Positions 3,190 through 43,652 are shown, numbered from the stretch's first letter. The stretch: 64,000 nt of DNA from Candidatus Woesearchaeota archaeon (GCA_018675335.1 JABGYH010000007.1:308232-372231); one strand, 5' to 3'. A program made the numbers and translations. The notes: generated by a model from the sequence alone, not told the origin.

Positions 3190-3870
3190 TTACTTCTTAC
3201 CTAATTTAAGCATTGAAGAGTAAACATCTCCCTTTTTTTCAATAACTTTCTCTTTTACTAATTGACCTAAAAAGTTTTCAATTTTATCTGCCGGAATACC
3301 CACATTTTTAGAAATTTGTTCAAGAGATAACTCTTTGTTTTGAAGTGAAAAAACAATAAAATTTCGAACTAAATTAATACTGTTTTTATCCATAAGTTTA
3401 ACGTGCGCAGACATTTCTTTTACTCTCATATCTGCAAAGTGAAGTCTTGCTATAAGATCTAACATTAAATCTGACAAATCTTTTGCACCAATCATTGATT
3501 CTGTTGGTTCTAAAACATCAATAGACGATGGAGTGAAATCAAAAACAAAACTTAACAAATCTTTAGGAGATTTAACCCAGAATTCTACTTCCGCAAATGC
3601 AGTCAACAATTTCTCATTATCTTTAACAGGTGTTGCTTCAAACGATTCTTCAAATGTCACTTCTAAATATTTTTCTTCATTAACTTTATCTAGAACTCCA
3701 TCCAATGTTTTCTCAACATATTCTTTAGGCGCACCTAAAACCTCAATTAAAGCTTTTACCAATAACTCGCCTTTAGCCATCCTTTCTTTAGGAGACATAA
3801 CTGGAGCTTCTTCCTCTTCTACTGCTTCAGATTTATTTTTTTTACGCTTAGTTGATTCTTTAATTGCCAT
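3190..3870 (-). CDS. Hypothetical protein with C-terminal winged-helix; possible kleisin (ScpA-like) partner encoded upstream of scpB
   Basis: C-terminal wHTH-like segment (ELSLEQISKNVGIPADKIENFLGQLVKEKVIEKK). The position immediately upstream of scpB on the same strand mirrors bacterial scpA-scpB order. Sequence similarity to ScpA is weak. Confidence 0.3.
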   Translation of the reverse strand: MAIKESTKRKKNKSEAVEEEEAPVMSPKERMAKGELLVKALIEVLGAPKEYVEKTLDGVLDKVNEEKYLEVTFEESFEATPVKDNEKLLTAFAEVEFWVKSPKDLLSFVFDFTPSSIDVLEPTESMIGAKDLSDLMLDLIARLHFADMRVKEMSAHVKLMDKNSINLVRNFIVFSLQNKELSLEQISKNVGIPADKIENFLGQLVKEKVIEKKGDVYSSMLKLGKK

Positions 3871-3987
3871 ACTTTAATCAAAAAAGATACTGACTTATAT
3901 ATCTTTCTGAAAATAAAAACCCCTCAATACTGTGCTTAGAAGATCTGTACCTGCGAAATTGAATAAAATTTAAAAAAAATGAATCTA

Positions 3988-5217
3988 TTAAAGTTTTTTG
4001 AAAATGAGTAAAACTAAAAGAACTGCAAATAATAAAATGAATATAAAAACTAGAAGAGATCTTGCTTTGGCAGAACTTGATCTATAACTGTCAGATGAGT
4101 TCATTTTTGAAAAATTTGCAGGAAATTTTGATTTAAAATCAATAATATGTTGATCTAAATTTAACGAATTATTTAATTTATTTAACGAATTATTTGTTGG
4201 AATTACAATTAACTCTTTAGTTAACAAATAAGGTGTTTTTCTATTTGATGAATTAATAACAATTCTTAACTTAAACATTCCGGCTTTTATAACTGAATTA
4301 TTAAGAGTAAAAGATACATTTGAAAATTTAGGCAAAATTAAATCTTTACGATTATCTGTTTTTTTACCTTGCGAATAATGTTTGCTACTTTTAAAAACAT
4401 AAGAATATACGGAAAATATCAAATCCTCATCTCGAAAATTTTGAGCAGAAATATTAATTGTAAATGACTGATTGACAAATACTTTTGATGGTGCTGAAAT
4501 AATTGAAAAGTTCAAATTAGTTGATTTTGTGTTTGTTTTTTTAGGAGAGGGTATTGATTTTTGTGTTGAAGTGATCGATTGAGAGTTAATTGATTGATTT
4601 ATGAACTGAGCATTACAATCCCCGTTAGCACTCCCCTCATCATAGACCTCACATTCCTCAGAATTATTCAAATCACATTCTTTTAAGACATCTAACTCTG
4701 CTAACTCCAATTTCACGTCGAGATCAAACCCCGTAATTCGTAAAAAAACTGATTGATTTTTAGCAAGACAACTTAAATAAAAAGGAAAATTAATAGTTTT
4801 GGAATGATTTGAAAATTTATTTTGAAATTTTTCTTTTTTTGTAGGAGTTAATTTTTTTAGTTTCGAATCTAACAAATCAAAATACAATGTAGTCTTTCTA
4901 GAATCTAATTTAACAAACAAGTAATCAACCAATAACTCATTCGCATTAGTGTTTTTTGAAATATTAATAATATTTATTCGTGCTTGATCATTTTCCCCAG
5001 AAAATAACACTTTTTGTGGAATTTGATATATATTTTGAGACGAATCACCCATATTGCTTTCACCCACTAATAATTTTAGACTAATTTCATTTTCAGGATT
5101 GTTAATTTGATATTTGGCGATGTTAATTATTGAAGCAGTATCGCCACCAGAGAATATTATAACCACGATTAACAAAAATATTTTTAAACACAATTTTAAA
5201 AAAATATTAGTCTGCAT
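3988..5217 (-). CDS. Secreted, membrane-anchored surface protein (N-terminal signal or TM, N/S/T-rich, C-terminal TM anchor)
   Basis: Hydrophobic N-terminus (IFLLIVVIIFSGG), many N-x-S/T sequons, C-terminal TM (LLVFIFILLFAVLLVLLIF) followed by KKL. Confidence 0.5.
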   Translation of the reverse strand: MQTNIFLKLCLKIFLLIVVIIFSGGDTASIINIAKYQINNPENEISLKLLVGESNMGDSSQNIYQIPQKVLFSGENDQARINIINISKNTNANELLVDYLFVKLDSRKTTLYFDLLDSKLKKLTPTKKEKFQNKFSNHSKTINFPFYLSCLAKNQSVFLRITGFDLDVKLELAELDVLKECDLNNSEECEVYDEGSANGDCNAQFINQSINSQSITSTQKSIPSPKKTNTKSTNLNFSIISAPSKVFVNQSFTINISAQNFRDEDLIFSVYSYVFKSSKHYSQGKKTDNRKDLILPKFSNVSFTLNNSVIKAGMFKLRIVINSSNRKTPYLLTKELIVIPTNNSLNKLNNSLNLDQHIIDFKSKFPANFSKMNSSDSYRSSSAKARSLLVFIFILLFAVLLVLLIFKKL

Positions 5218-6957: not shown

Positions 6958-8001
6958 ATGACAAAAGTAACTTGTGTTAGCGTTGTATTACAAAAAGCTG
7001 AAGATGTAAAGAATTTTTTACTTGAAAAAAATCTATTTAATAAAGATTATTCTTTCAAAAAATATGAAAATAGAATTTGCTTCCCAATAATTCAATCAAA
7101 AGAAAGCAACCAAATGATTCTAGACAAGTTCGATTTTGTAACATTTGAAGAACTAGAATTACAAGAAACTAGATATCCTCAAAATTTAAAAGACTCACTA
7201 AAAGAAAAATTAACAAAAGAAGAATTAGGTTTTTTAAAAACTTCATACGATGTTGTTGGAACAATTGCAATACTTGAAATTGATGCACCACTTGATAAAA
7301 AAGAAAAAATTATTGCAGATGAAATTCTTAAAACAAACAAAAACATAAAAACAGTAGTAAAAAAGGCAGATAAACACGACGGAGAATTTAGAACTCAAAA
7401 AATGACCTACATTGCCGGCGAAGAAACACTCGAAACATCATATCAAGAACATAATGTGCGACTAAAACTAAATGTTGAAGAAGTATATTTTTCACCAAGA
7501 CTCTCAACTGAACGAAAAAGAATATATGAAAAGATTACGAAGGGAGAAGATGTTTTAGTTATGTTTAGTGGTTGTGCACCTTATCCTTGCGTTCTTTCAA
7601 AAAATAGTTCTGCTGCCAATATTTTAGGAGTTGAAATAAATCCAGTAGGACACAAATATGGAATTGAAAATATTAAATTAAACAAACTAACCAATGTTAA
7701 ATTAATTAATGGCGATGTACGCGAAATTGTTCCAAAGCTAGAAGAAAAATTTGATCGAATACTTATGCCACTACCAAAAACTGCAGAAGAATTTTTAGAT
7801 ACAGCACTTTGCGTTGCAAAAAAAGGAACAATAGTTCACTTATACGCCTTTTTACATGAAGACAATTTTAAAGAAGCACACGATGCAATAGACATTGCCT
7901 GCAAGAATAAAGGATTTAAGTATAAACTACTTGAGACAGTCAAATGCGGGCAACACGCGCCAAGAGTATATAGAATCTGTGTTGATTTTGAGATACTTTA
8001 A
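6958..8001 (+). CDS. tRNA (guanine37-N1)-methyltransferase Trm5/Taw2 family (class I SAM MTase)
   Basis: Motifs FSPRLSTERKRI, VLVMFSGCAPYPCVL, GVEINPVGHKYGIENIKLNKL and FDRILMPLP are typical of Trm5/Taw2. Confidence 0.6.
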   Translation: MTKVTCVSVVLQKAEDVKNFLLEKNLFNKDYSFKKYENRICFPIIQSKESNQMILDKFDFVTFEELELQETRYPQNLKDSLKEKLTKEELGFLKTSYDVVGTIAILEIDAPLDKKEKIIADEILKTNKNIKTVVKKADKHDGEFRTQKMTYIAGEETLETSYQEHNVRLKLNVEEVYFSPRLSTERKRIYEKITKGEDVLVMFSGCAPYPCVLSKNSSAANILGVEINPVGHKYGIENIKLNKLTNVKLINGDVREIVPKLEEKFDRILMPLPKTAEEFLDTALCVAKKGTIVHLYAFLHEDNFKEAHDAIDIACKNKGFKYKLLETVKCGQHAPRVYRICVDFEIL

Positions 8002-8250
8002 ACTTTAGAACTCATTTAAAAGAATTTCTGGAAAGCTTTTTATAATGCCCTGAGTTATTCAATAATTAAGTAGTGTAAACCTGCGATGATTTAGTGAACA
8101 CCAGCTGAGCCTTGCGGCGATGATGGACGGTAGTAACTTAAGAGCGGGGCACAAATACTTTACAAAAATAGAAATTACTCAACAAACAAATTCTAACCGA
8201 AAAAAATATGTTAAAACTCAAAAAAAAATCTTACGCTAAAGAAAAAATAA

Positions 8251-9615
8251 TTAATCGACAAAATCTATAAACTGCCCATCTTGAATTATGTGAACTTGTT
8301 TTTCAGTTTCATAACCCATTTCTTGACAAAGATCAACAAGTGCAGTCTTCATACTCAAATTACCATGCGCAGGAATAATATGTTTTGGTTTTACCATATT
8401 AATCAAATCTCTCAAATCTTCTCTTGCTGCATGACCACTAACATGAATTTTTTTAAAGAGTCTCACTCCTTTCTTTTTTATTTTCTCTTCTAAAATCTTA
8501 CGATTTGCAATATTAATAGTTGTTGGAATCACATCACAACTAAAAATAATATGATCTTCTTTTTCTAGTTCAAACTTAAATTCACCAGAAATAATTCTTG
8601 ACAAAACAGATTTAGGCTCGGCTTGATGACCTGTGCACACAATCAAATACTTAGAACGATCTTTTTTGACCTCTTCTAACATACGAGCAATTTTCTTTTT
8701 ATAACAAATAACTGTTGCTTCACGAGAAAAATCAACTATTTTAATTGCTTCTGCAGCACCCACATACTTACCTAAACTACGACCTAAAAGAATAACTTTT
8801 CGCTCCAATTTATTACCAAACTCAATAATTGATTTGAGTCTTGCTATATGACTAGAAAAAGTTGTGACAATAACTGCTTTACCCTCGCTATTACAACAAA
8901 GCATAACATCTTTTAGTAATTCACGCGCTACTTGCTCTGAAGGAGTCTTACCATCATTATTTGCACGCGTACAATCAACAATTAATGCAACCACTTTTGA
9001 TTTGGGATCCTCAGAGTTTTCAGAAATTTCCCCAATTCTTTTTAATTTTTCAAAATTAGGTTTTTTACCAAGAGTAGGATTATTATCAAACTTAAAATCA
9101 TTACCATAAATAACTTTACCATACTTAGTATGAACAATCACCATCACAGTCTGAGGAGTACTATGCGTCATGTTAACAAATTCAATAGTGATATTATCAG
9201 AAATTTTATAAGAACAATTAACATTTAAAACTTTAATTTCATTATTAAGTTTTATTTTTTCATCTTTACAAATTCTAAAAATAACTTCTGCAGTAAATGG
9301 CGTGCAAATGATTGGAGACGTAAATTTATTTGACATAAAAGGAATTGCTCCAACATGATCCAGATGTGCGTGAGTTGGAATAATTGCTTTTACTAATTTT
9401 TTCCATTTTTTAATTGGTTCAATATCAGGAATTGCGCCAATTTTAGATAATGCATATGCACTCAAATCAACATTGTCTGCATCTTCAGTATAATTCACAT
9501 AAGCATCCAGATGAAGCCCCATATCAAGAATTACTACCTCATCATCAACTCGCACTGCAGTCATGTTTTTACCAACTTCATTAAATCCTCCCACACCACA
9601 AATTTGTAAAGTCAT
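8251..9615 (-). CDS. beta-CASP family metallo-beta-lactamase RNase (aCPSF2-like, no KH domains)
   Basis: HxHxDH motif (IIPTHAHLDHVGAIPF), ~450 aa, beta-CASP C-terminal region (…IHVSGHAAREDL). Confidence 0.7.
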   Translation of the reverse strand: MTLQICGVGGFNEVGKNMTAVRVDDEVVILDMGLHLDAYVNYTEDADNVDLSAYALSKIGAIPDIEPIKKWKKLVKAIIPTHAHLDHVGAIPFMSNKFTSPIICTPFTAEVIFRICKDEKIKLNNEIKVLNVNCSYKISDNITIEFVNMTHSTPQTVMVIVHTKYGKVIYGNDFKFDNNPTLGKKPNFEKLKRIGEISENSEDPKSKVVALIVDCTRANNDGKTPSEQVARELLKDVMLCCNSEGKAVIVTTFSSHIARLKSIIEFGNKLERKVILLGRSLGKYVGAAEAIKIVDFSREATVICYKKKIARMLEEVKKDRSKYLIVCTGHQAEPKSVLSRIISGEFKFELEKEDHIIFSCDVIPTTINIANRKILEEKIKKKGVRLFKKIHVSGHAAREDLRDLINMVKPKHIIPAHGNLSMKTALVDLCQEMGYETEKQVHIIQDGQFIDFVD

Positions 9616-9802
9616 GAAAAAAGATTCAGGATAATTTGTTTATAAATCTTTGGAAGAAAAAGAAACTGAATTTGATTGAAAGCAGATGACTGCAATAAGT
9701 TTTATATATCACTGCAAGATTTCTTTTACGCAGCGCGAAAGGCTTAAATTGGTTAATTGAACGCTAAACTAATGTTACCTTAAAATTAATGCTTAAAAAA
9801 AC

Positions 9803-10007
9803 GTGGGGGTAGCAAAGTATGGTCAAATGCGCTGGACTCAAGTTAAATTTGAGTGATGAGCTTATGCGATGAATAATTACGCATATGACTTTCCTATTAT
9901 GAGGAATCCAGTCCTTTAGTAGGTTCAGGGGTTCGAAATTAAATATGATTTTTTTAGTGCTTAAAACTAACTAAAAACCATATTTGACGATTGTCCCCTC
10001 CCCCACA
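9803..10007 (+). tRNA. tRNA-Leu(CAA) interrupted by two introns (canonical 37/38 intron ~63 nt plus a ~57-nt insertion in the T-loop)
   Basis: Acceptor GTGGGGG/CCCCCAC with discriminator A; D-arm GCA-AAGTATGGTCAAA-TGC; anticodon stem CTGGA/TCCAG with loop CTCAAG|intron|A; 15-nt variable arm TCCTTTAGTAGGTTC; T-stem AGGGG/CCCCT with TTCGAAA followed by a 57-nt insert before CCCCT. The BHB-like 3' half (TGAG helix plus 3-nt bulge GAA) is visible at the anticodon intron. Confidence 0.7.
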
Positions 10008-10049
10008 TTTTCTATTTTTTTATCATAAATAATAATTAGAACAATAAAA

Positions 10050-11084
10050 TTAAAAGAAATCTCCAAGACCTTTTTGCGCTGCTTTTTGTTGTTGCTTTTC
10101 AAGTTTTTTTAATGCAGACAAAACACGATCTTTGCTAAAATCATGTTCTTCACATAAAATTTTACAAACCCTATCAGGATCAATTGCAGTCCAGGTTAAA
10201 TCATAATCATCAGTGTGAGGCATTTTTTTAAATAAATAAAATACTTCAGTCCAAGGAAAATCAAAAAAATCATCCCACTTAACTTCTTCAAATAAACTAT
10301 CAAAATCAGAACCATGTTTTTTAACTAACTTAATTGCATTTTTTGGACCAATACCCCTAATTCCTCCAACATTGAAATCAGTTCCAACTAACATGCCGAC
10401 AGCAATTAATTGATCTCTATCAATACCTAAATGATTAAGGTTTTCTGCAAGTTCTATTATTTCAGGTTTAATTTGTTCATAAGACAATCTGCCCAACATT
10501 TTTTTACGCTCAGAAATAGTTAAATTACGAACCATAATAGGCACTCCAAACATCAAACAATCAAAGTCTTGAGAAATTTCATAATCAACTTCCCCTTTTG
10601 AAACCATGTATGCTGCTTGGGCCTCCCCCTCGCTTGGTGCTTGAATAACTGGAATTCCCAGCGCCAATAAAAGTTCTTTTGCTTCACTTACCATTTCAGG
10701 ACTTAACTTAGCAGTTCTTGCAGCAAATTTTTTCATACCTTCGAGATCGTGCTCAGCTTCCGCTTCTTTAAATTTTTTTTGAGCGTCTGATTTGAGTTGT
10801 GCTCGCCTAATACGTTCTTTAGTTTTAAGTTCTGGTGCTTTCCCATCAAAAACAAAAGCAAGTTTCATTCCATGAGACATAAGTTTAGTTGACCTATAAA
10901 ATAATCCACTAAGATGAGATGTTACTCTACCTTTAGAATCAGTAAGAAGTGCTCCGTCTCTTTGACGAATTGTCGATACAAATTGATATAAAATATTAAA
11001 TGCATCTACTGCAAACGTTTTATTATTAAATTGATTAATCGACGCTTCTTTTTTCAAAATTAAATCTTTAAGATTAACACCCAT
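10050..11084 (-). CDS. fen: Flap endonuclease 1 (FEN-1)
   Basis: N-terminus MGVNLKDLI…AVDAFNILYQF, XPG-N/I domains, and a C-terminal PIP-like tail (…QKGLGDFF). Confidence 0.85.
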   Translation of the reverse strand: MGVNLKDLILKKEASINQFNNKTFAVDAFNILYQFVSTIRQRDGALLTDSKGRVTSHLSGLFYRSTKLMSHGMKLAFVFDGKAPELKTKERIRRAQLKSDAQKKFKEAEAEHDLEGMKKFAARTAKLSPEMVSEAKELLLALGIPVIQAPSEGEAQAAYMVSKGEVDYEISQDFDCLMFGVPIMVRNLTISERKKMLGRLSYEQIKPEIIELAENLNHLGIDRDQLIAVGMLVGTDFNVGGIRGIGPKNAIKLVKKHGSDFDSLFEEVKWDDFFDFPWTEVFYLFKKMPHTDDYDLTWTAIDPDRVCKILCEEHDFSKDRVLSALKKLEKQQQKAAQKGLGDFF

Positions 11085-11194
11085 TCAAGACACCTTTTAA
11101 ACTGAATTTAGACTTCTGGTTATTGACTGTGCTCACAAACTTCCCAGCATAAAATATTTATGAATTACAGATTTATGAATTATATATTTACAGT

Positions 11195-12472
11195 TCAGAT
11201 ATTGTTGATGACCATTCCTTTAAATTCATTAGACAACATTTCTTCTGCTCGCTTAGTTAACTTTCCCGACGTAACAAAAAGAACAGGTAACTTTTTTAAT
11301 TGTCCTTGAACAAACGCTGAACTTAAATCACCATCATTAATTGTTTTTTTTGATTTAGCTTTACAATAAAAACTAATAACTCCTACTGGACTTGGAACAT
11401 CAAGTACCAAATCAAGTTCAGAATTTTTTCGAATAATTTTTATGTCAATAAGTTTAATATCATTTGATTTTAAAAATGAACTTATTTGAGACCCGAACTC
11501 ATCATCAGGAATTTGAGGAAGTGGTTTTTCAAAAGTTTTTTGCGTTTCATTAGAAATTGATTCAAGTTTTGATTTTTTAGGTTTTGGTTTATCCCTCGAT
11601 ATTTCTTTAATTTGAGAAATTTCTTTTCTTAAGTCTGAGATGATAGATTTTTGTTGATTGATAAGATCATTTCTATGTTTTAAAAGAGATTGTTCTAATT
11701 CTAAAATTGTTTGATGATCATTAAGTTGAGCTTTAGATGGTACTTCACTATCACTCGTTGTTGAAGGAACCTGACTTTTTTGAGTTAATACTTCAGGCTC
11801 CACATTTGGTTGCGCATTAGGTCGGGGTGATTCAACTGGCGTTGGTTGTGCAGGATGAGTTTGAGTAATTGGTTTTTGAGTTGGTTGTATGTGCTCCGCT
11901 GCAATTGAATTAGAATTTTCTTTTTGAACCTGAGTGTTTTGCGATTGAACTTGATTATTTTCAGGAACATCTGCTTTTGGAACTTCATCTACTTTTTCAA
12001 CTTCAGGTGCAGACTTATCTTCAATTCCCAATAATTTTTTAATAAAAACCGAACTCTCATCATTTGATAACAAATACCATTTCCAAAAAATTTCAGTAGA
12101 ATTATTATGCGAAACTTCTAACGGAATTGCAAAGTCTTTAATTTCTCTTAAACTAACTCGCACCAAAGGAGTCTGAGTTGAATCTTGAAGAATCTTTTTA
12201 GATTTTAATAAATCAAAAGTATCACGATCTTTTGCATTAAGTTTATTTGAAAAATTTTGAAGAAGATGTTCTTGACCTGGCTTAAAATACAAAGGAGACC
12301 CCCCAAATTTCAAATTTGAAAGCTTTAAAATTTTATTATCAACAAGCTCGGATAACATAGCTGATGTAAACAGAATATTTAGATTTAATTCCTTATTAAT
12401 ATTTGATGGAATAACTGGGCCTTTAATACTTATTAACTGAAGGATCTTAGACTGGTTATCTGGAGCTGCCAT
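11195..12472 (-). CDS. Hypothetical protein: N-terminal winged-helix-like domain, P/Q-rich linker, C-terminal restriction-endonuclease-like (PD-(D/E)xK-like) domain
   Basis: C-terminal segment ELDLVLDVPSPVGVISFYCKAKSKK resembles the D…(D/E)xK core of Hjc-like nucleases. The middle ~120 aa is Q/P/S-rich. Confidence 0.4.
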   Translation of the reverse strand: MAAPDNQSKILQLISIKGPVIPSNINKELNLNILFTSAMLSELVDNKILKLSNLKFGGSPLYFKPGQEHLLQNFSNKLNAKDRDTFDLLKSKKILQDSTQTPLVRVSLREIKDFAIPLEVSHNNSTEIFWKWYLLSNDESSVFIKKLLGIEDKSAPEVEKVDEVPKADVPENNQVQSQNTQVQKENSNSIAAEHIQPTQKPITQTHPAQPTPVESPRPNAQPNVEPEVLTQKSQVPSTTSDSEVPSKAQLNDHQTILELEQSLLKHRNDLINQQKSIISDLRKEISQIKEISRDKPKPKKSKLESISNETQKTFEKPLPQIPDDEFGSQISSFLKSNDIKLIDIKIIRKNSELDLVLDVPSPVGVISFYCKAKSKKTINDGDLSSAFVQGQLKKLPVLFVTSGKLTKRAEEMLSNEFKGMVINNI

Positions 12473-12587
12473 AATACAAAATAAAAGAAATCAAAGGTAT
12501 ATAAGTATTTTGATACAAGTGGAAAGTAAAAACAAAAAAAAGTAAATTAAGTTAAAAAAATGATTAGAAATTTAATTATAACTACGT

Positions 12588-13118
12588 TTATGGTCGCATC
12601 CAACGAATTTCCCAGTAAGTAACATCAGTCTCAGCATCAACAACACCGATTAAAAGCCGTTTTTTAGTTGAGTTTGCAACACGATTTTTTGCAGAAAATT
12701 CATACCATGAAAAACTATCTGATTCTTTAACAGGATATACTAACCATTTGGCATGATCTTCACCAGGTTTCACACCACGATCGTAAACCCTAAAATCAGC
12801 ACCAAACTTAAGTGCAGTCTTAACAATATACCCTCTGTTTCTTAAATCCTTAAACACGCAGAATCTAGTCCAGAAATTATTTTCTTTTCTTAACGCTTTT
12901 TTAAGAAAATTCTGATCATCAAGTGGCTTATTACGAAGATCAGTAATGACAATACGTTTTTTTTGCATAAGATAATAAGCTTCAATAAGAGATAATTCTA
13001 CTCTGCTTTCAACAACAACCCCAAATCTACTTTGATTATAAAGTTCTCTTGCTATATCACTATCTTCAGTTAATACTCTTTCCTTAGCAAAAATTGCTTT
13101 AACAACTTGTTTTGGCAT
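12588..13118 (-). CDS. endA: tRNA-splicing endonuclease (EndA), short alpha4-type length (176 aa)
   Basis: Catalytic region FGADFRVYDRG…HAKWLVYPV…STKK matches the EndA Tyr/His/Lys core. Confidence 0.75.
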   Translation of the reverse strand: MPKQVVKAIFAKERVLTEDSDIARELYNQSRFGVVVESRVELSLIEAYYLMQKKRIVITDLRNKPLDDQNFLKKALRKENNFWTRFCVFKDLRNRGYIVKTALKFGADFRVYDRGVKPGEDHAKWLVYPVKESDSFSWYEFSAKNRVANSTKKRLLIGVVDAETDVTYWEIRWMRP

Positions 13119-13262
13119 TTTATATCAGATTGAGAGGGTTATTTATAAAGGTTTGGGGATTTAATAACTTTGTTTAAATAGGATTTATAAAGGAAAATAA
13201 TATAAATGGATAATGGAAATTAACTAATAATATATTCACTAAAATTGATTGTGCGTACGCCA

Positions 13263-13690
13263 ATTACAAACTCAATCGTACTCGATTATTAAAAAAAACT
13301 CAAAACAAAAATAAAATGCAACTAACATTTTTAGGCACCAACTGGTTACGCTCAGCTTGACACGCAACACCCAGTACGATTTCGCAAACTCAATCGTACT
13401 CGATTATTAAAAAAAACTCAAAACAAAAATAAAATGCAACTAACATTTTTGGGCACCAACTGGTTACGCTCAGCTTGACACGCAACATCCAGTACGATTT
13501 CATAAATTCAATCGTACGCAATTTTAAAAAAAAACTCAAAACAAAAACAAAATGCAACTAACATTTTTGGGCACCAACTGGTTACGCTCAGCTTGACACG
13601 CAACATCCAGTACGATTTCATAAACTCAATCGTACGCAATTTTAAAAAAAAACTCAAAACAAAAACAAAATGCAACTAACATTTTTAGGC
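13263..13690. repeat. 118-bp tandem repeat x ~3.6, each unit containing a TATA-like box and the first 27 nt of the RNase Z gene
   Basis: ATG of the repeated unit sits at 13316, 13434, 13552 and 13670 (period exactly 118). The first three copies continue caccaactggttacgctcagcTTGA (a 14-aa uORF). The fourth copy continues into the real rnz ORF. Confidence 0.9.
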
Positions 13691-14578
13691 ACTAGTGCCA
13701 TGGTTCCAACAAAGGAACGAAATGTATCAGGGATTTTTCTAGATTACAAAACAGAAGGAATACTATTTGATTGCGGAGAAGGAACGCAAAGACAGATGAA
13801 TATAACTGGAATAAAAAGATCAAAGGTTACAAAAATACTAATCAGCCATTGGCATGGAGATCACGTTTCAGGAATTATTGGCCTCATCCAAACAATGGGT
13901 TCAGATCAAGTAACTCACACAGTAAGAATATATGGCCCAACAGAAACTAAAAAAAGAGTTGAACATATGATGCAAACTTGCATATTTGATCAAAAAATAG
14001 AAATTGAAGTGATGGAACTTGAACCTGTGGGAACAGAAGTATTAAGATTTTTTGAAAACGAAAATTATGCACTAGAATGTGCTGCTCTTGATCATAAACT
14101 ACCTTGCATAGGATTTAATTTTATTCAAAAAGATCAGCTTAATGTGAGCATGGCAAAAATTAGCAAATTAGGACTGAGTGAAGGCCCATACTTAAGACAA
14201 ATTAAAGAAGGAAAAGATGTTACTGTAAACGGAATTAAAGTTCTTTGTAAAGATGTAACGTATCTTAAACCAGGAAAAAAAATAAGTTATGTTGCAGATA
14301 CTCAAACTTGCGAAGGTGCACTGAGACTCGCCGAAAATGCAGACATACTAATAAGTGAATGCGTTTATGCCTCATCAACACACCAAGAAAAAGCAGAACA
14401 ATACAAACACATGAGCGCAAAAGATGCAGCAATGCTTGCAAATCGGGCAGAAGCAAAAAAATTAATACTCACACACTTTTCTCAAAGATACAAAAACACA
14501 CAAGACATAGAAGAAGAAGCTAGCATGTACTTTGATAATGTAATTTGTGCAGAAGATTTTATGAAAATAAAAATTTAA
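13670..14578 (+). CDS. rnz: Ribonuclease Z (tRNA 3' endonuclease), metallo-beta-lactamase fold
   Basis: MQLTFLGTSAMVP…; HxHxDH (ISHWHGDHVSGI); C-terminal …LILTHFSQRY. Confidence 0.85.
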   Translation: MQLTFLGTSAMVPTKERNVSGIFLDYKTEGILFDCGEGTQRQMNITGIKRSKVTKILISHWHGDHVSGIIGLIQTMGSDQVTHTVRIYGPTETKKRVEHMMQTCIFDQKIEIEVMELEPVGTEVLRFFENENYALECAALDHKLPCIGFNFIQKDQLNVSMAKISKLGLSEGPYLRQIKEGKDVTVNGIKVLCKDVTYLKPGKKISYVADTQTCEGALRLAENADILISECVYASSTHQEKAEQYKHMSAKDAAMLANRAEAKKLILTHFSQRYKNTQDIEEEASMYFDNVICAEDFMKIKI

Positions 14579-14658
14579 TTCTTTTCTCGACGAGAAAAAT
14601 TCATCTGCTTTGTTTAAATTCATAATTTTAAAACAGAAATTGTTAAACTAAAATATAA

Positions 14659-14796
14659 TTAAAATTCCCAAATAGACTTCTGTCCGGCTTTCAAAAGCTG
14701 TTCTGCTTCATCATAAGTTATACGTCGTTTATTCATCAAAGCTCTAACTTGAGTTTCAAAAGTTTCTTCTTCAGTTTTTTTTTGCTCACCAAACAT
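14659..14796 (-). CDS. Small hypothetical protein (45 aa), missing from the ORF track
   Basis: Reverse-strand ORF MFGEQKKTEEETFETQVRALMNKRRITYDEAEQLLKAGQKSIWEF* in the rnz-hjc intergenic region. No family assignment. Confidence 0.3.
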   Translation of the reverse strand: MFGEQKKTEEETFETQVRALMNKRRITYDEAEQLLKAGQKSIWEF

Positions 14797-15021
14797 CTTA
14801 ATATAAAATTATTAGAAATGTTATTTAAAGTTTGTTTACCATTACACAATTAAATAAATAAATATGAAATCGCACAATAGTAACAAAAACATGAATTGTT
14901 TATGTAATGCCCCAGAAATACATATTTGATCAAAAGTTTTGATTGATAAAAACATAATAATAAAAATAGTTCTTACTTAAGTAAACACATAATTATTTTG
15001 AAATGTAAACAATAAATAACA

Positions 15022-15414
15022 ATGAGTCTAAAAAGTAAAGGAATTAATGCTGAAAGAGAATTAATCCACAAATTTTGGGGATCTGGTTGGGCCTCAACAA
15101 GAGTTGCAGGAAGTGGTTCAATCAAATACGCTAGTCCTGATGTTATTGCAGGACGAGGTAATCGTAAAATAGTAATAGAATGCAAAGTCACTAAAAATAC
15201 TCGGCAATATCTCACCCATAAAGAAGTAAAAGAATTACAAGAGTTTGCAAGCATATTTGGAGGGGAAGCCTGGATCGGGGTTAAATTTAATTCTTACGGC
15301 TGGTATTTTTTAAATATTGAAGACTTAGAACTAACACCTAAAAGTTATGTTACAAGTTTAGAACATGCAAAATTAAAAGGATTACTCTTCGAAGAATTAA
15401 TTGAATTCAAATAA
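15022..15414 (+). CDS. hjc: Holliday junction resolvase Hjc
   Basis: RELIHKFWGSGWASTRVAGSGS…SPDVIAGRGNRKIVIECKVTK carries the PD…ExK catalytic motif of archaeal Hjc. Confidence 0.8.
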   Translation: MSLKSKGINAERELIHKFWGSGWASTRVAGSGSIKYASPDVIAGRGNRKIVIECKVTKNTRQYLTHKEVKELQEFASIFGGEAWIGVKFNSYGWYFLNIEDLELTPKSYVTSLEHAKLKGLLFEELIEFK

Positions 15415-15426
15415 ATTATTATGAAT

Positions 15427-16356
15427 TTACTTTTTTTTAGCTTTTGTTTTTTTAAGAAGTTCATCAACTTCTTTTTCCTTCTTCTTAATTTTTTTAACTT
15501 CAGATTTTACTTCTTGAATCTCATCTTCTTGACGTTCATGTGATTCTTCTGCTCGATCCAACTTATGTTCTTCTCTTTTTAAAATATTACTTTGAGTGCC
15601 AGAAATGTAAACTAATAACAATGCAATAAATAACACATTAATTACCATCCCAAACATAATTTCCAAACTAGTCATAAATCTTGCTGCAGTCGATAAAGGA
15701 GTAATTTCTCCATACCCAATTGTTGCAAATGTTACAACACTATAATAAATAAAAGTAGTTGGTTCAAGTTCTTCTTCAAATCCAACAGTAAATGCGTCCG
15801 GCGAATGAACATACATATCATAATACTGCATACCAAAACCAAAAATATACAATAAAACAATCGCAAGATACACAACCATAACGTATAATTGTTTTCCTTT
15901 AATGAACCAATCTTTAATATTAGAATAAATACCTAAAACTTCGGGAGCAAAAATAAATGTTAATAAAAGATAATGCGCAAAATAACACAACGACCCAAGT
16001 AAAAAACCAGGATTACCTGCTAATGCAGAAGGCAAGGAAAGTCCAATACCCACAAGAAAAAAAGCTAAAATGGAATATCTAATTCCTGAAATTTTCTCTC
16101 GCCTACGAATAAAAGGGATTATCAACATAAAAATAAGAAATGTAAAAACAAACATGAAAATTCTAGCGACAATAGTTTGCGATGTTTCAAAGAAAATACT
16201 AAAAATTGAACCTAACCAAAAAGAAATCAAAAGCGCAATTAAAATAGGAATAAAAAAGAGCAAATTATAATTAACTAATTTCATAAGAGAAATATCAGTT
16301 TTGCCAATATCAGACGGGTGCGACACCTCTTTTTTCATACGATCCCACAGATTCAT
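15427..16356 (-). CDS. Potassium channel (6TM plus pore, TIGYGE selectivity filter) with a charged coiled-coil C-terminus
   Basis: Selectivity-filter sequence TFATIGYGEITP; multiple TM helices before it; Lys/Glu-rich tail. Confidence 0.75.
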   Translation of the reverse strand: MNLWDRMKKEVSHPSDIGKTDISLMKLVNYNLLFFIPILIALLISFWLGSIFSIFFETSQTIVARIFMFVFTFLIFMLIIPFIRRREKISGIRYSILAFFLVGIGLSLPSALAGNPGFLLGSLCYFAHYLLLTFIFAPEVLGIYSNIKDWFIKGKQLYVMVVYLAIVLLYIFGFGMQYYDMYVHSPDAFTVGFEEELEPTTFIYYSVVTFATIGYGEITPLSTAARFMTSLEIMFGMVINVLFIALLLVYISGTQSNILKREEHKLDRAEESHERQEDEIQEVKSEVKKIKKKEKEVDELLKKTKAKKK

Positions 16357-16469
16357 TATTTAAATACAAATAAAAAGACTATTTAAATGTTTCTCATAAA
16401 AAAAATAAAAAAGATTACACCAACAAAGAAATAGTAAGATTAATAAAACTCAAATTAATACAAACTAAT

Positions 16470-17069
16470 ATGAAATCTTGGATGCATAAATTCGAACATT
16501 TAATTGATAAATCAATACCTTATACTTTAATACTATTATTAGGAATCATTGTTATTGAAATATTTTTTAAAGACTTTGCACACCACTACCACACAATAAT
16601 TTCCATACTTGATTGGATTGTAATTTCAGTATTTGTTTTTGATCTTGTGTTCAAATATATCCGAATAAGAAATGTAAAAAATTTTATAAAAAAATGCTGG
16701 CTAGATATTATCGCAGTATTTCCTTTCTTTATTTTTTTTCGAGCAATAGAAGGAATTGCAGGGACATTATCATTTGGACTCAATGAAGGACTTGGAACAT
16801 TTCAAAGCATTCTACACGAGGGAGTCGAAGTTGAAAAGGAAGGCGCAAAAATAATTGAAGCAATAGAAAAAGAAGGCACACGAGGTGCAAAAATGACTCG
16901 AAGCACTCGATTTACAAGATTTGTTCGAATGTTTTCACGAACTCCCCGATTTTTAAAAGCAGTGCCTTTTTATGCAAAACCAACAGGCCAACATCACCCT
17001 CACGAAACCATACTCAATAATAAAAAGAAAGCACATAAAAAAACTAATTCTAAAAAGAAAAGAGTATGA
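16470..17069 (+). CDS. Membrane protein resembling a pore-less ion-channel transmembrane module, with an Arg/Lys-rich C-terminal tail
   Basis: 3-4 TM helices (…LDIIAVFPFFIFF…) without a GYG pore. The C-terminus RSTRFTRFVRMFSRTPRF is highly basic. Confidence 0.35.
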   Translation: MKSWMHKFEHLIDKSIPYTLILLLGIIVIEIFFKDFAHHYHTIISILDWIVISVFVFDLVFKYIRIRNVKNFIKKCWLDIIAVFPFFIFFRAIEGIAGTLSFGLNEGLGTFQSILHEGVEVEKEGAKIIEAIEKEGTRGAKMTRSTRFTRFVRMFSRTPRFLKAVPFYAKPTGQHHPHETILNNKKKAHKKTNSKKKRV

Positions 17070-17116
17070 TATTGAACATACTTAATGTCTAATTAATAAT
17101 AATTAAAAAGAATAAA

Positions 17117-17229
17117 AGCCCTTGGTGAGAGTTGAACTCACGACCTGCTGCTAACTCAAATAAACACATTTTACAAGTTCTGTGTTAGGATATACGAGGC
17201 AGCCGCTCCAGCCACTAAGCTACAAGGGC
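17117..17229 (-). tRNA. tRNA-Thr(CGU) with a ~40-nt canonical-position intron
   Basis: Reverse complement gives acceptor GCCCTTG/CAAGGGC; D-arm GCTT-AGTGGCTG-GAGC; anticodon stem GCTGC/GCAGC with loop CTCGTA|intron|A; variable loop AGGTC; T-arm GTGAG-TTCAACT-CTCAC. BHB 3' half: TGAG helix plus TTA bulge. Confidence 0.7.
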
Positions 17230-17271
17230 AAGTATGAACGTAAATTCAAACATGACTATAATTAAATTTTT

Positions 17272-17417
17272 TCTAATACTTCCTTTTTTGTTTGAAACTT
17301 ATTTTGACATTCACTACAAATAATATGCTTCTTACCCTTTTCATCCTTAACATAAGAACCAAATGGTTTTTCTAAAAAATTCATTTGAACCTTTTGCTTA
17401 CAAATCTCGCACTTCAT
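17272..17417 (-). CDS. Small Zn-ribbon protein (48 aa; CxxC…CxxC), missing from the ORF track
   Basis: MKCEICKQKVQMNFLEKPFGSYVKDEKGKKHIICSECQNKFQTKKEVLEKI*. Confidence 0.4.
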
Positions 17418-17496
17418 ATTAACTAAAGAAAAAAGATTTGTTTATAAATTTAATCAAATAAGTTTAAATACTTAAAAAACCAATATATACATTAAA

Positions 17497-17724
17497 ATGA
17501 TAGGATTCGTACTAATCTCACTAAATCATGGAGATGAACAGAAAGTACAAGCTGAATTACAACTATTAGAACAAGTAACTGAAGTTCATATTCTATTTGG
17601 AGAATGGGACTTAATCGCAAAAGTTACCGTAGATGGTCCAGAAGCACTTTCAACATTTGTTATGGACGCAGTTAGAACAATACCTGAAATAAAAATGTCA
17701 TCTACTCTTATTGTTGCGAAATAA
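17497..17724 (+). CDS. Stand-alone Lrp/AsnC-type RAM (ligand-binding) domain protein
   Basis: 75 aa with GFVLISLNHGDEQKVQAELQLLEQVTEVHILFGEWDLIAKV, typical of the AsnC C-terminal domain. No HTH present. Confidence 0.55.
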   Translation: MIGFVLISLNHGDEQKVQAELQLLEQVTEVHILFGEWDLIAKVTVDGPEALSTFVMDAVRTIPEIKMSSTLIVAK

Positions 17725-17750
17725 ACATGAACTTAGAAAAAAACTAATAT

Positions 17751-19502
17751 TTATGTGTAATACAACTTGTTAGCGGATTTTTGTTCACGGTCTTTACGAC
17801 TATCTTCTTTATTTACCCTTGGCCTAGATGAATCTTCATCACGCCGCATAGTAATTTTTAAATCTGCCAAAAAATGATTCATCCCTTGCTCCATCGTAAA
17901 CGGACCTTTTACAATACCATTTACTGCCGGAACTCCATCAAATACCACAATTTTTCTAGCAATATAATCAATAAATAATAAATCGTGATCAATAACAAAA
18001 CAAGACTTACCCGTTACATCCATCAAATCTGCAATTATTTTGGAAACATTAAGCCTTTGCTCAACATCCAAATAAGCACTTGGCTCGTCTAAAAGAAATA
18101 AATCTGCATCCCGAGAAAGACAATGTGCAATTGTTACTTTTTGAAGTTGTCCTCCTGAAAGCTCATTTAATTTTTTATAAAATAAGGGTTTTAAATTTAA
18201 TGGATTAATTAATTGATTCTCAAACTTTTGAATTGCAGTGCCTAAAAAAGTCATCACTAACTCATCAGTTGATTCCAAATATTGTGGTTTGTAAGCAATC
18301 TTGATTTTCTCATCAATTTCTCCTTCATCAGGCAGATCCACTTTTGCTAAAATTTTAACAAAAGAAGTTTTACCAATTCCATTCTCACCTAAAACTCCAA
18401 TAACATCATGTTTTCTTAATTCACCTTTCTGTGCAACTAAAGAAAAATTACCTAATTTCTTTTTAACATTTGACCACGCACACAACAACGGAGTTTCCCT
18501 ATTATGTTCTTCAGGCCTAGTGTTAAATGTAATCTTGTAATCTCTAAATCTAACATTCTCTTCTTTAATGTAACCTTCAAGATATGCATTAATCCCAACT
18601 CGCGTTGTTCTTGGAAGACTAACCATCCCATAAACACTTTCTCGCCCGTACATAATATGAGTTAAATCAGTCATCGAATCAAGAATAATTAAATCGTGCT
18701 CGATAATTAAAACTGCCTTTTCAGGGGTTGCCAGACTTCGAATAAACTTACTTAATTTAATTCTCTGTTTAATATCTAAATAAGATGTTGGCTCGTCGAA
18801 GATATATAGATTTGCATCTTTTAATACAGTTGCTGCAATTGCTACTCTTTGTAACTCCCCACCAGAAATATGTTCAACACTCCTATCAATTATTTTTGTT
18901 AATTCTAAAAGAGTAATTATTTCATCAAGTTTATTTGTTTCATCAGCTTTTTCTAAAAGTTCTCTTACTGTGCCCTTAAACACTTTAGGAATTTGATCAA
19001 CCGCCTGCGGTTTATATGCAACCTTAATTTCTCCCTGCTTTACCTTCTCAAAAAACTTCTGAGCTTCAGTTCCTTTGAAAAACTCAACAAGTTCGTCGTA
19101 TGATGCGGATTCATTTCTCCCAAAATTAGGCTTTAATGCACCCGCAAGAATTTTAATTGCAGTAGATTTTCCAATACCATTTACTCCCACAATACCCACA
19201 ACTTTCCCAAAAAGAGGTGTTGGCAAAGAATAAAGTGCAAACCCATTTGGGCCAAATCTATGAATTGGATCGCGTTGAAGTTCTGATGGTAAGTTAATAA
19301 TTGAAATTGCTTCGAATGGACAACGATTACTACAAATACCACAACCAGTGCAAAGAGACTCGTCAATAAGTGGTTTTCCCTCTTGTTGAATTATACATTC
19401 AGAACCAGTACGATTCATAGGACAAAGTTTGACACAAAGAAAATCACCACAACCAATAGGATTACAATATGATTTTTTAATAACTGCAATACGTTTTTTC
19501 AT
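17751..19502 (-). CDS. ABCE1/RLI (RNase L inhibitor) ribosome-recycling ATPase
   Basis: N-terminal 4Fe-4S cysteine clusters (CNPIGCGDFLCVKLCP, CTGCGICSNRCPF) followed by two ABC ATPase domains (Walker A GVNGIGKST, GENGIGKTS; LSGGELQR, LSGGQLQK). Confidence 0.9.
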   Translation of the reverse strand: MKKRIAVIKKSYCNPIGCGDFLCVKLCPMNRTGSECIIQQEGKPLIDESLCTGCGICSNRCPFEAISIINLPSELQRDPIHRFGPNGFALYSLPTPLFGKVVGIVGVNGIGKSTAIKILAGALKPNFGRNESASYDELVEFFKGTEAQKFFEKVKQGEIKVAYKPQAVDQIPKVFKGTVRELLEKADETNKLDEIITLLELTKIIDRSVEHISGGELQRVAIAATVLKDANLYIFDEPTSYLDIKQRIKLSKFIRSLATPEKAVLIIEHDLIILDSMTDLTHIMYGRESVYGMVSLPRTTRVGINAYLEGYIKEENVRFRDYKITFNTRPEEHNRETPLLCAWSNVKKKLGNFSLVAQKGELRKHDVIGVLGENGIGKTSFVKILAKVDLPDEGEIDEKIKIAYKPQYLESTDELVMTFLGTAIQKFENQLINPLNLKPLFYKKLNELSGGQLQKVTIAHCLSRDADLFLLDEPSAYLDVEQRLNVSKIIADLMDVTGKSCFVIDHDLLFIDYIARKIVVFDGVPAVNGIVKGPFTMEQGMNHFLADLKITMRRDEDSSRPRVNKEDSRKDREQKSANKLYYT

Positions 19503-20284
19503 TTTCCAATCTTCCTCACAAAACTTAAGAATCCAGAATGAATAATTTGTCTTGATTTTGGTCTAACTTTTCTACCTTCAACTTGCCACTCTCGTTCTAT
19601 TAACTCAATAGTTTTAAGATGAATAAGATTTTCATGATTGGGAATTTCATTAACAAACTCTGCAGTTTGAGTAATTGTTGGAGAATAAGATACAACAAAA
19701 CCTCCTGGTTTTAGCATTTTTGATGCGTGTTTTAAAACTAACCACGGTTCTGGAAGATCAAGAGTTAATAAATCAACATTTTTTTCTTCAAATCCATCAT
19801 AAATACTTTGATTTTTAACATCAATATTTTTTATATCAAGAATTTTAATATTTTCTTTAACAACTGCAAGATGATCAGGTTCAATTTCATACGTTGTAAC
19901 CTTTTTTACATGGCGCGCTAAAAATAAAGAAAGTGCGCCTGAACCACTACCTGCATCAACAACAATAGAATCTTTACCAACTCCAGTTTGCGCCAGAATA
20001 AAACCAATATCTTTTAGAGGGATTATTTGAGGCAATCTTTTCATCTTTTTATAATCATCAATGAACGCAGAATCAAAAATAAATAATTCTTCACCTTTAC
20101 TAGAAATAACTTTATCGCCATTTGATTTTTTCAGATCTTCCGCTTTGATAAAACCTTTTGACGTGGAAAAATCTTTAGACAAATCAGATAAATAATATCT
20201 TTTTTCTTTTGAAAGAGTAATCTCTTTATCCAAATCTTCAAAATACTTTTTTATGCATTTTTTAATTAAAATTTTAGCGCACAT
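19499..20284 (-). CDS. trmI: tRNA (adenine-N1)-methyltransferase TrmI/Gcd14 family
   Basis: SAM motif VVDAGSGSGALSLFLAR; its stop overlaps the ABCE1 start by 4 nt. Confidence 0.65.
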   Translation of the reverse strand: MCAKILIKKCIKKYFEDLDKEITLSKEKRYYLSDLSKDFSTSKGFIKAEDLKKSNGDKVISSKGEELFIFDSAFIDDYKKMKRLPQIIPLKDIGFILAQTGVGKDSIVVDAGSGSGALSLFLARHVKKVTTYEIEPDHLAVVKENIKILDIKNIDVKNQSIYDGFEEKNVDLLTLDLPEPWLVLKHASKMLKPGGFVVSYSPTITQTAEFVNEIPNHENLIHLKTIELIEREWQVEGRKVRPKSRQIIHSGFLSFVRKIGK

Positions 20285-37784: not shown

Positions 37785-38089
37785 AAATGATAAATATGAA
37801 ATAAAATGTTGCCCGAGACACTAACTCCCAAGTTCATCGCTTGCATTTAGCGACAGCTCAATTGAGTACTCTCGTGACGGGCTGTACCACGCAAGAGTGT
37901 CTTCAAATCATCGATAGACCTTACGTCAGGCTCAAAAAAGGACCCATTTACGCAGTTTTATGAGTTTATATAGTGAACATGACATATATAAACTTTTGTT
38001 TTCGAAGTTAGAAAATTAAACTATATAAATGTTTCGATTATTTATTACTGTTTAGTAGTATTTATCGTTGCTTGCGGTTTTGTAATATT

Positions 38090-43022: not shown

Positions 43023-43173
43023 AAATAGCATAAAAAAGACTAGTAACTTTTGGTTGCTAAGAGAGGTAATAAACTGAGGGAAAGATCTAATACTTAATTT
43101 CTTTTTAAATTAAGTTAAATAAGATAATAATATTTATAAATGAACTGCTGTTTCTTGAAGAATAACTCAATAC

Positions 43174-43382
43174 GGGCCCGTAGCCTAGCCTGGTAAAAAT
43201 CATCACTCACTCTGAGAATAATATTTGAAGAGTTTACTGATTTTTAGGTAAATAGGGCAACAGCCTTCTAACCAAACAAACTAAAGTTTGAGAAGAGAGC
43301 TGTGGGTCGAGGGTTCGAAATGTTTTAAGCGCTAGGTAAAACCGACCGAAATGCTTAAACCTCGAAAGTCCCTCCGGGCTCG
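43174..43382 (+). tRNA. tRNA-Arg(UCU) apparently interrupted by three introns (D-loop ~58 nt, anticodon 37/38 ~27 nt, T-loop ~49 nt)
   Basis: Removing three inserts yields a 74-nt cloverleaf: GGGCCCG-TA-GCCT-AGCCTGGTA-GGGC-A-ACAGC-CTTCTAA-GCTGT-GGGTC-GAGGG-TTCGAAA-CCCTC-CGGGCTC-G. BHB 3' half at the anticodon intron: GAAG helix plus AGA bulge. T-loop insert is flanked by duplicated TCGAAA. Confidence 0.55.
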
Positions 43383-43527
43383 TTCATATTCACTTTTGAA
43401 AATAATTCTATTTAACCAAAGTACGTTTGATAAAATAAAAAAAAATACTTTAAAAAAACAAAAATATACTTCACGAAAACTATATAAATAAACACTTGCC
43501 CCAATTGGAATAAAATACGTTCAATTT

Positions 43528-43652
43528 GGTGGAGTCGCCAAGCCCGGTAAGGCGTTCGGCTGCAATAATTGGGATGATGAGCAACCAAAAATCATGGTTG
43601 TAATGATCTAGCAGATCCCGATCATTCGAGGGTTCAAATCCCTCCTCCACCT
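43528..43652 (+). tRNA. tRNA-Cys(GCA) with ~51-nt canonical-position intron
   Basis: Acceptor GGTGGAG/CTCCACC with discriminator U; D-arm GCC-AAGCCCGGTAA-GGC; anticodon arm TTCGG-CTGCAA|intron|C-CCGAT; T-arm GAGGG-TTCAAAT-CCCTC. BHB 3' half: GCAG helix plus ATC bulge. Confidence 0.6.

Follow-up and report, generated by a model that had tools for sequence, protein, structure and literature searches.

It is established that archaeal tRNA genes can hold as many as three BHB introns. Most known cases come from Thermoproteales, among them tRNA-Glu(UUC) of P. calidifontis and tRNA-Pro(UGG) of P. islandicum (PMC4390854; PMC8450103). In DPANN, Kaneta et al. 2018 surveyed one Woesearchaeota and one Pacearchaeota genome, reported increased tRNA gene disruption, and predicted that further disrupted tRNA genes had escaped detection, since the tRNA sets were incomplete (PMC5829648). 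A D-loop intron is also known from pre-tRNA-Glu(UUC) of M. kandleri, where it forms a relaxed HBh' motif that is poorly cut by the organism's own enzyme (PMC5829648). In the cited papers on DPANN tRNA disruption (PMC5829648; PMC3239211), we found no account of the tRNA-Arg(UCU) gene described here or of its spread of zero to three introns.

We analyzed a 64-kb stretch of archaeal DNA, hereafter the window. Positions 43174-43382 very probably hold a working tRNA-Arg(UCU) gene with three introns, from a DPANN archaeon of the Woesearchaeota type; that the gene is spliced is inferred.

This gene resembles the multi-intron tRNA genes of Thermoproteales in having up to three short BHB introns at canonical and non-canonical sites, including the D and T arms, in the protein splicing endonuclease that would remove them, and in an intron content that differs between related species. 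Unlike in Thermoproteales, the host is an A+T-rich (30.6% G+C) DPANN archaeon rather than a crenarchaeote. Its EndA is a 176-aa M. jannaschii-like unit, whereas the crenarchaeal alpha subunit has a Crenarchaea-specific loop, and all three introns form a strict 3-4-3 BHB, whereas relaxed HBh' motifs are common in Thermoproteales. The disrupted tRNAs of ARMAN-2/Micrarchaeum and Nanoarchaeum belong to the same superphylum, and non-canonical and multiple introns have been reported there (PMC5829648; PMC3239211). However, disruption in the cases of Kaneta et al. 2018 and Fujishima et al. 2011 was tied to an extra loop (L2/L3) of EndA, and the EndA encoded here has no insertion at the place of the Lys-rich loop of N. 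equitans alpha and ARMAN-2. As in Methanopyrus kandleri pre-tRNA-Glu(UUC), a D-loop intron and a 37/38 intron are combined in one gene (PMC5829648), but the D-loop intron here has the full hBHBh' motif.

Layout of the tRNA-Arg(UCU) gene and its surroundings

The gene spans 209 nt on the plus strand and consists of four exons of 20, 19, 22 and 14 nt (Table 1). Introns of 58, 27 and 49 nt follow G19 in the D loop, position 37 in the anticodon loop (37/38) and position 59 in the T loop (59/60), so that the locus reads GGGCCCG TA GCCT AGCCTGG (58 nt) ATA GGGC A ACAGC CTTCTA (27 nt) A GCTGT GGGTC GAGGG TTCGAA (49 nt) T CCCTC CGGGCTC G. Once the three introns are excised, 75 nt are left, which ARAGORN calls as tRNA-Arg(tct) with a full cloverleaf of 7-bp acceptor, 4-bp D, 5-bp anticodon and 5-bp T stems. 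The conserved tRNA nucleotides U8, A14, G18G19, A21 and U33 are present, as is the T loop TTCGAAT. The G+C content of the spliced product is 64%, compared with 30.6% across the window. A sequence-only reading of the locus had proposed a textbook cloverleaf of 74 nt after three excisions; the cloverleaf and its paired stems stand, and the length is corrected to 75 nt.

Table 1. Coordinates of the tRNA-Arg(UCU) gene and of other features of the window.
Feature	Position	Strand	Basis
Trm5b-like m1G37 methyltransferase	6958-7998		
RNase J	8251-9612		
EndA tRNA splicing endonuclease, 176 aa	12588..13118	-	PF01974 (E 2.3e-29), PF02778
RNase Z, would trim the precursor 3' trailer	13670..14578	+	TIGR02651, 312.7 bits (cut-off 292.95)
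tRNA-Thr(CGU), with intron	17117-17229	-	Rfam
GCD14/TrmI-like methyltransferase	19499-20281		
Single ORF of 3582 aa	22084-32829	-	
TATA-box-like element TTTATAAA, 33 nt upstream of mature 5' end, putative promoter	43133..43140	+	Sequence
Exon 1: acceptor 5' strand, U8-A9, D stem 5' strand, D loop up to G18-G19	43174..43193	+	ARAGORN, intron-aware alignment; L089 junction
Intron 1, 58 nt, G19/A20 in D loop	43194..43251	+	Strict hBHBh' motif
Exon 2: A20 to A37, D stem 3' strand, anticodon stem 5' strand, anticodon TCT (43267-43269)	43252..43270	+	ARAGORN
Intron 2, 27 nt, canonical 37/38	43271..43297	+	BHB geometry
Exon 3: A38 to A59, anticodon stem 3' strand, variable loop GGGTC, T stem 5' strand, T-loop TTCGAA	43298..43319	+	ARAGORN; metagenome matches
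Intron 3, 49 nt, A59/U60 in T loop	43320..43368	+	BHB geometry, fold
Exon 4: U60, T stem 3' strand, acceptor 3' strand, discriminator G73; CCA not encoded	43369..43382	+	Sequence, ARAGORN
TTTT run, 12 nt past the gene, possible archaeal oligo-T terminator	43394..43397	+	Sequence
tRNA-Cys(GCA), with intron	43528-43652	+	Rfam

The unspliced gene escapes standard tools. ARAGORN made no call at the locus, whether run by default, with its intron mode switched on or allowing introns as long as 300 nt, and with a relaxed score it returned nothing at 43174-43382 and merely spurious calls elsewhere. The Rfam tRNA model likewise had no match to the unspliced interval at the gathering threshold or at E<=10. 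The proposal that this tRNA-Arg(UCU) folds only after three excisions is borne out, with the spliced form called and the unspliced gene missed. Rfam detected two other tRNA genes in the window, tRNA-Thr(CGU) and tRNA-Cys(GCA), each with an intron. Scans of the window for further hidden tRNA genes, using G+C-rich islands and T arms with or without a 59/60 intron, returned only these three known tRNA genes and one unconvincing match at 37897.

Two other kinds of disrupted tRNA gene were considered. A split or circularly permuted gene of the Nanoarchaeum, Caldivirga or Thermofilum type is ruled out, since all four exons are collinear, in order and on the same strand within 209 nt. Group I introns are built around a self-splicing ribozyme core, are usually longer than 200 nt, and occur in tRNA genes of bacteria, Patescibacteria and some archaea. 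They are ruled out here by the lengths of the inserts (only 58, 27 and 49 nt) and by Rfam, in which no group I intron family matched at the gathering threshold or at E<=10.

The genes flanking tRNA-Arg encode topoisomerase VI B and A, a RIO kinase, a KH protein and an MBF1-like protein. The closest named relatives of the topoisomerase VI A subunit (Top6A) belong to Candidatus Woesearchaeota/Nanoarchaeota, with 72-81% identity, and the host is a Woesearchaeota-type DPANN archaeon, in agreement with the earlier guess at its lineage. ENA contig ERZ27237606:k141_91901 (556 kb) encodes a protein identical to the window Top6A (P0001), with the recorded gene starting at a later ATG than the window ORF. 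About ten bins labeled Candidatus Scalindua, Brocadiaceae or Planctomycetota (L060-L068, L075, L077, L083) carry Top6A proteins that are 72-73% identical, and more matches are labeled Methanosarcinales, Pseudomonadota, Parcubacteria or Krumholzibacteriota. These foreign labels point to recurrent mis-binning or to a transferred topoisomerase VI.

Signals around the gene recur in relatives. The element TTTATAAA or TTTAAA(A) lies upstream in nearly all 32 orthologues, mostly at about -33 to -26, and a T run directly follows tRNA-Arg in most of them. AGA accounts for 254 of the 497 Arg codons (51%) in 42 window ORFs, so that tRNA-Arg(UCU) is in heavy demand. The gene in the window is presumably the only one for this tRNA.

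The downstream tRNA-Cys(GCA) gene carries a 51-nt intron at 37/38, with the central helix CTGC/GCAG and bulges AAT and ATC. This intron holds GGGATGATGAGC ... AATGATC, a motif also found in the tRNA-Cys intron of both L022 and L037, and the tRNA-Cys intron of L006 has the variant GGGATGAAGAGC ... AATGACTGATC; the motif looks like a C/D-box or k-turn element. The 9-mer AAAAATCAT is common to the tRNA-Arg D-loop intron (43194-43202) and the tRNA-Cys intron (43576-43584), with 15 of 1000 shuffles sharing a word as long. The word is of low complexity, and we do not count it as evidence that the introns share an origin.

BHB motifs, precursor fold and splicing endonuclease

In the archaeal BHB, the 5' strand runs from an exon helix (h) through a 4-bp helix (H) and a 3-nt bulge to an intron helix (h'), and the 3' strand mirrors this order. 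Cleavage falls after the second bulge nucleotide. In all three introns of the tRNA-Arg gene, H is paired in 4 of 4 positions and the bulges are 3 nt long, with h of 4, 5 and 5 bp, respectively. In intron 1, beyond the 4-bp h, H pairs GCCT (43188-43191) with AGGT (43246-43249), the bulges are GGT and AAA, and h' comprises 8 bp (43195-43202 with 43238-43245); this D-loop motif is the most perfect of the three. In intron 2, h is the 5-bp anticodon stem, H pairs CTTC (43265-43268) with GAAG (43292-43295), the bulges are TAA and AGA, and h' is the 5-bp CAAAC/GTTTG beyond one C-A mismatch. In intron 3, h is the 5-bp T stem, H pairs TTCG (43314-43317) with CGAA (43363-43366), the bulges are AAA and AGT, and h' is the 7-bp TTTAAGC/GCTTAAA beyond two mismatches.

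The GAAG:CTTC helix followed by the AGA bulge in the anticodon insert and the TTTAAGC/GCTTAAA hairpin in the T-loop insert are therefore present as the sequence-only reading had claimed. That reading had also made its case depend on BHB motifs at the D- and T-loop junctions, and both were found with strict 3-4-3 geometry. It had further noted a duplicated TCGAAA flanking the T-loop insert. The copies are real, but a target-site duplication is rejected. As TTCGAA is palindromic, pairing with T54-G57 obliges the intron to end in CGAA, and in orthologues with TTCAAA the 59/60 intron ends in TGAA. The word AGGTAAA, which does occur in both the D and T inserts as noted, is at chance level, with 144 of 1000 shuffles sharing a word at least as long, and was rejected as an indication of intron mobility. 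The three tRNA-Arg introns show no significant similarity to one another, and none of them contains a RUGAUGA box as expected for a C/D-box sRNA.

The unconstrained fold of the 209-nt precursor reached -65.4 kcal/mol (z -3.7), a stability that none of 200 shuffles attained. All four tRNA stems (acceptor, D, anticodon and T) are already present in it, each loop being prolonged by an intron helix, and the predicted pair probabilities of H in intron 3 are 0.88-0.98. Enforcing all three strict BHBs together gave -64.0 kcal/mol, which is only 1.4 kcal/mol above the minimum, so that the three motifs are compatible and independent. The predicted structures support a role of all three inserts as archaeal BHB introns.

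The window also encodes a candidate enzyme. EndA scored 118.7 bits against TIGR00324 endA (cut-off 59.6), and over residues 12-175 its alignment with the alpha4 enzyme of M. jannaschii (1A79) is interrupted by just one gap of 1 residue. The catalytic Tyr, His and Lys of that enzyme correspond to Y112, H122 and K153, so that EndA shows the alpha4-type features of a single unit with N-terminal and catalytic C-terminal domains and an intact triad. Among PDB structures, it matches best the alpha subunit from the heterotetrameric N. equitans enzyme (3IEY_A, E 5e-36), and an (alpha-beta)2 architecture is thus also possible. Aligned with N. equitans alpha, EndA has no counterpart of a Lys-rich insert, six residues long, that lies there between the catalytic Tyr and His. 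This insert, found in N. equitans alpha and ARMAN-2, has been linked to the cleavage of relaxed motifs (PMC3239211; PMC5829648), and Kaneta et al. 2018 described DPANN EndAs as consistently carrying the L3 loop (PMC5829648). The apparently loop-less EndA of the window seems to be at odds with that description.

These features bear on whether every insert is removed. The gene could be real while EndA removes only some of the inserts, one of them, such as that in the T or anticodon loop, being spliced with low efficiency, only in a fixed order, or in a register other than the canonical one. In the predicted fold of the anticodon intron, the canonical H has a probability of about 0.19, compared with about 0.7 for a register shifted by one (UUCU/AGAG), which is favored because the GAGAAGAGAG repeat lets the helix slip by one. 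In addition, h' of introns 2 and 3 starts with mismatches beside the bulge, and the insert that EndA lacks is the one tied to relaxed specificity in N. equitans and ARMAN-2 (PMC3239211). However, three fully paired central helices, 3-nt bulges and an exon-side helix of 4-5 bp constitute the strict motif, and the three BHBs form jointly near the optimal energy. Of the two anticodon registers, moreover, only the canonical one yields a 7-nt anticodon loop, and natural intron-less genes agree with it. We therefore regard incomplete or shifted splicing as improbable. Because all three motifs are strict 3-4-3, even a narrow-specificity M. jannaschii-like EndA should process them.

For a functional three-intron gene, maturation may proceed as follows. 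Transcription from the gene's own TATA-box promoter would yield a precursor about 209 nt long, not counting its leader and trailer, in which each of the three arms would extend into a helix with two 3-nt bulges separated by 4 bp. EndA would cut after the second nucleotide of each bulge, making six cuts in all, and an RNA ligase, presumably RtcB, would join the four exons. End processing by RNase P and RNase Z and the addition of CCA would then complete the 75-nt tRNA, which would read AGA, the dominant Arg codon here. A Pfam scan covering 40 window ORFs found no RtcB ligase in this 64-kb part of a 556-kb contig. The RNA-processing genes from the Trm5b-like to the GCD14/TrmI-like methyltransferase (6958-20281) lie within 14 kb, with FEN1 and Hjc in between.

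Orthologues near topoisomerase VI and natural counterparts

We fetched 80 Top6A loci from species-representative genomes and ran on each an intron-aware alignment, a dynamic programme in which long insertions carry a fixed cost. A tRNA-Arg(UCU) gene lies within 2.5 kb of Top6A in 31 of the 80 loci as well as in the window, all from Woesearchaeota/Nanoarchaeota relatives, and ARAGORN called the spliced products of all 32 orthologues as tRNA-Arg(tct). The closest Top6A relative, P0002 (81% identity), has a different downstream neighborhood in which the tRNA is absent, indicating that the Top6A/tRNA-Arg synteny is not universal. In L006, four copies of a repeat of about 60 nt (aaaaacaa.ttttt.gcatataaagataatgccgactcgcaagctcatctggcattatca) at 3650-4100 fill the spacer between Top6A and tRNA-Arg; the window is without them.

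Intron number varies widely among the 31 genomes. Three have no intron (L036, L037, L043), 14 have one, seven have two and seven have three (L013, L017, L023, L032, L040, L041, L066), giving 49 introns in total, or about 1.6 per gene. The recurrent positions are about 15-16, 19/20, 21-24, 29/30, 37/38, 41-44 and 59/60, with eight or more in all; five introns without a good BHB register (D arm of L013 and L066, 41-44 of L023, D loop of L040 and T loop of L059) are placed approximately. The 19/20 position of the window is also used in L006, L022, L023, L032, L059 and L161, where C16:G is replaced by U16:A in a compensatory manner in some. A three-intron tRNA had been thought notable for this lineage. 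Its existence is upheld, but it does not stand out there, as 7 of 31 relatives carry three introns and DPANN disruption is known (PMC5829648); within its lineage the gene is typical rather than exceptional. In L022, tRNA-Cys(GCA) lies about 69 nt beyond tRNA-Arg on the downstream side, measures 165 nt and apparently has three inserts (D loop, 37/38 and T loop), which suggests that multi-intron genes in the lineage are not confined to tRNA-Arg.

Introns at shared positions were compared for covariation. In the 59/60 class, with 11 distinct introns, the T stem and H are 97% paired and none of 500 shuffles reached the observed covariation score. Position 57 pairs with the intron as G:C in six cases and A:U in four, and is unpaired in one. 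The 19/20 class comprises seven introns, with 98% of the structure paired and a covariation score that was reached by 2 of 500 shuffles; position 16 forms U:A three times, C:G twice and U:G once, and is unpaired once. The covariation supports the predicted BHB structure without being proof by itself, in sets that are small (11 and 7) and whose sequences are related to each other.

Natural genes also provide counterparts of the predicted spliced product. On the metagenome contigs L194, L139, L126, L123, L100 and L096, tRNA-Arg(UCU) equals the spliced product from G18 to the 3' end, covering the 37/38 and 59/60 junctions; exon 3 is identical in these intron-less genes, and the 16-mer GGGCAACAGCCTTCTA of exon 2 is also found in intron-less tRNA-Arg genes of metagenomes. 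The remaining junction is represented by L089, which carries GGGCCCGTAGCCTAGCCTGGATAGGGCAACAGCCTTCTA, that is, exon 1 directly joined to exon 2 as predicted, and the D loop of the intron-less L037 is AGCCTGGATA, the exact outcome of splicing at 19/20. Conversely, the metagenome contig L161 has three introns at the three positions of the window, of 17, 17 and 23 nt and with unrelated sequences, and its tRNA-Cys follows tRNA-Arg in the same order as in the window.

The same comparisons weigh against the locus being a decaying tRNA pseudogene with three insertions that is left unspliced while a working tRNA-Arg(UCU) is encoded elsewhere. The silence of standard tRNA finders at the locus would fit such decay, and a second, intron-less tRNA-Arg(UCU) could lie outside the 64-kb window. 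However, the exons are intact and identical from G18 onward to intron-less genes of other organisms, every stem of the spliced form pairs, and each insertion sits exactly within a 3-4-3 BHB. A syntenic gene is present in many relatives, with the same intron positions and with compensatory changes by which the BHB is maintained. In addition, the putative promoter element is conserved, and AGA is the main Arg codon. A pseudogene is thus very unlikely.

A permissive BHB scan (four consecutive pairs with BHB spacing, G-U allowed) finds 388 candidate places within the 209 nt, and short helices come cheaply in A+T-rich DNA; such a scan is too unspecific as lone evidence, and our case is built instead on the complete BHB geometry in combination with the spliced product and the comparison with relatives. 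An origin of the cloverleaf by chance, from freely choosing three deletions in arbitrary sequence, is refuted by the intron-aware alignment of the natural intron-less orthologue L037 to the window, in which the gene scores 80.5, compared with best scores of 42.5-50.5 in 20 shuffled 64-kb windows and a maximum of 36.5 in 300 shuffles of the gene itself, by the ARAGORN call on the spliced product, and by exact counterparts among natural genes.

Implications for tRNA introns in the lineage

Three-intron tRNAs, a known if rare type, and DPANN tRNA disruption have already been described, and the mechanism is not new. What is mildly new is that three-intron genes are common in an A+T-rich lineage, that tRNA-Arg(UCU) is a hot spot with zero to three introns in close relatives, and that the local EndA is without a specificity loop. 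Because ARAGORN and Rfam are blind to the gene for the commonest Arg codon, genomes of this lineage will seem to lack an essential tRNA, and quality criteria that count tRNAs will underestimate its metagenome-assembled genomes.

An orthologous gene with zero to three introns in 31 species forms a compact natural data set on the gain, loss and positional reuse of BHB introns, including introns that share a position and have unrelated sequences. With EndA encoded in the same window, it can be asked directly whether a simple enzyme of this kind is able to process D-loop and T-loop introns if the BHB is strict.

It is possible, if doubtful, that Woesearchaeota-type DPANN archaea form another lineage, alongside Thermoproteales, where tRNA introns have multiplied, perhaps by means of a plain, loop-less M. 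jannaschii-like EndA. If true, a strict 3-4-3 BHB would be required of these introns, and the accepted link of non-canonical and multiple introns to broad-specificity endonucleases would be loosened.
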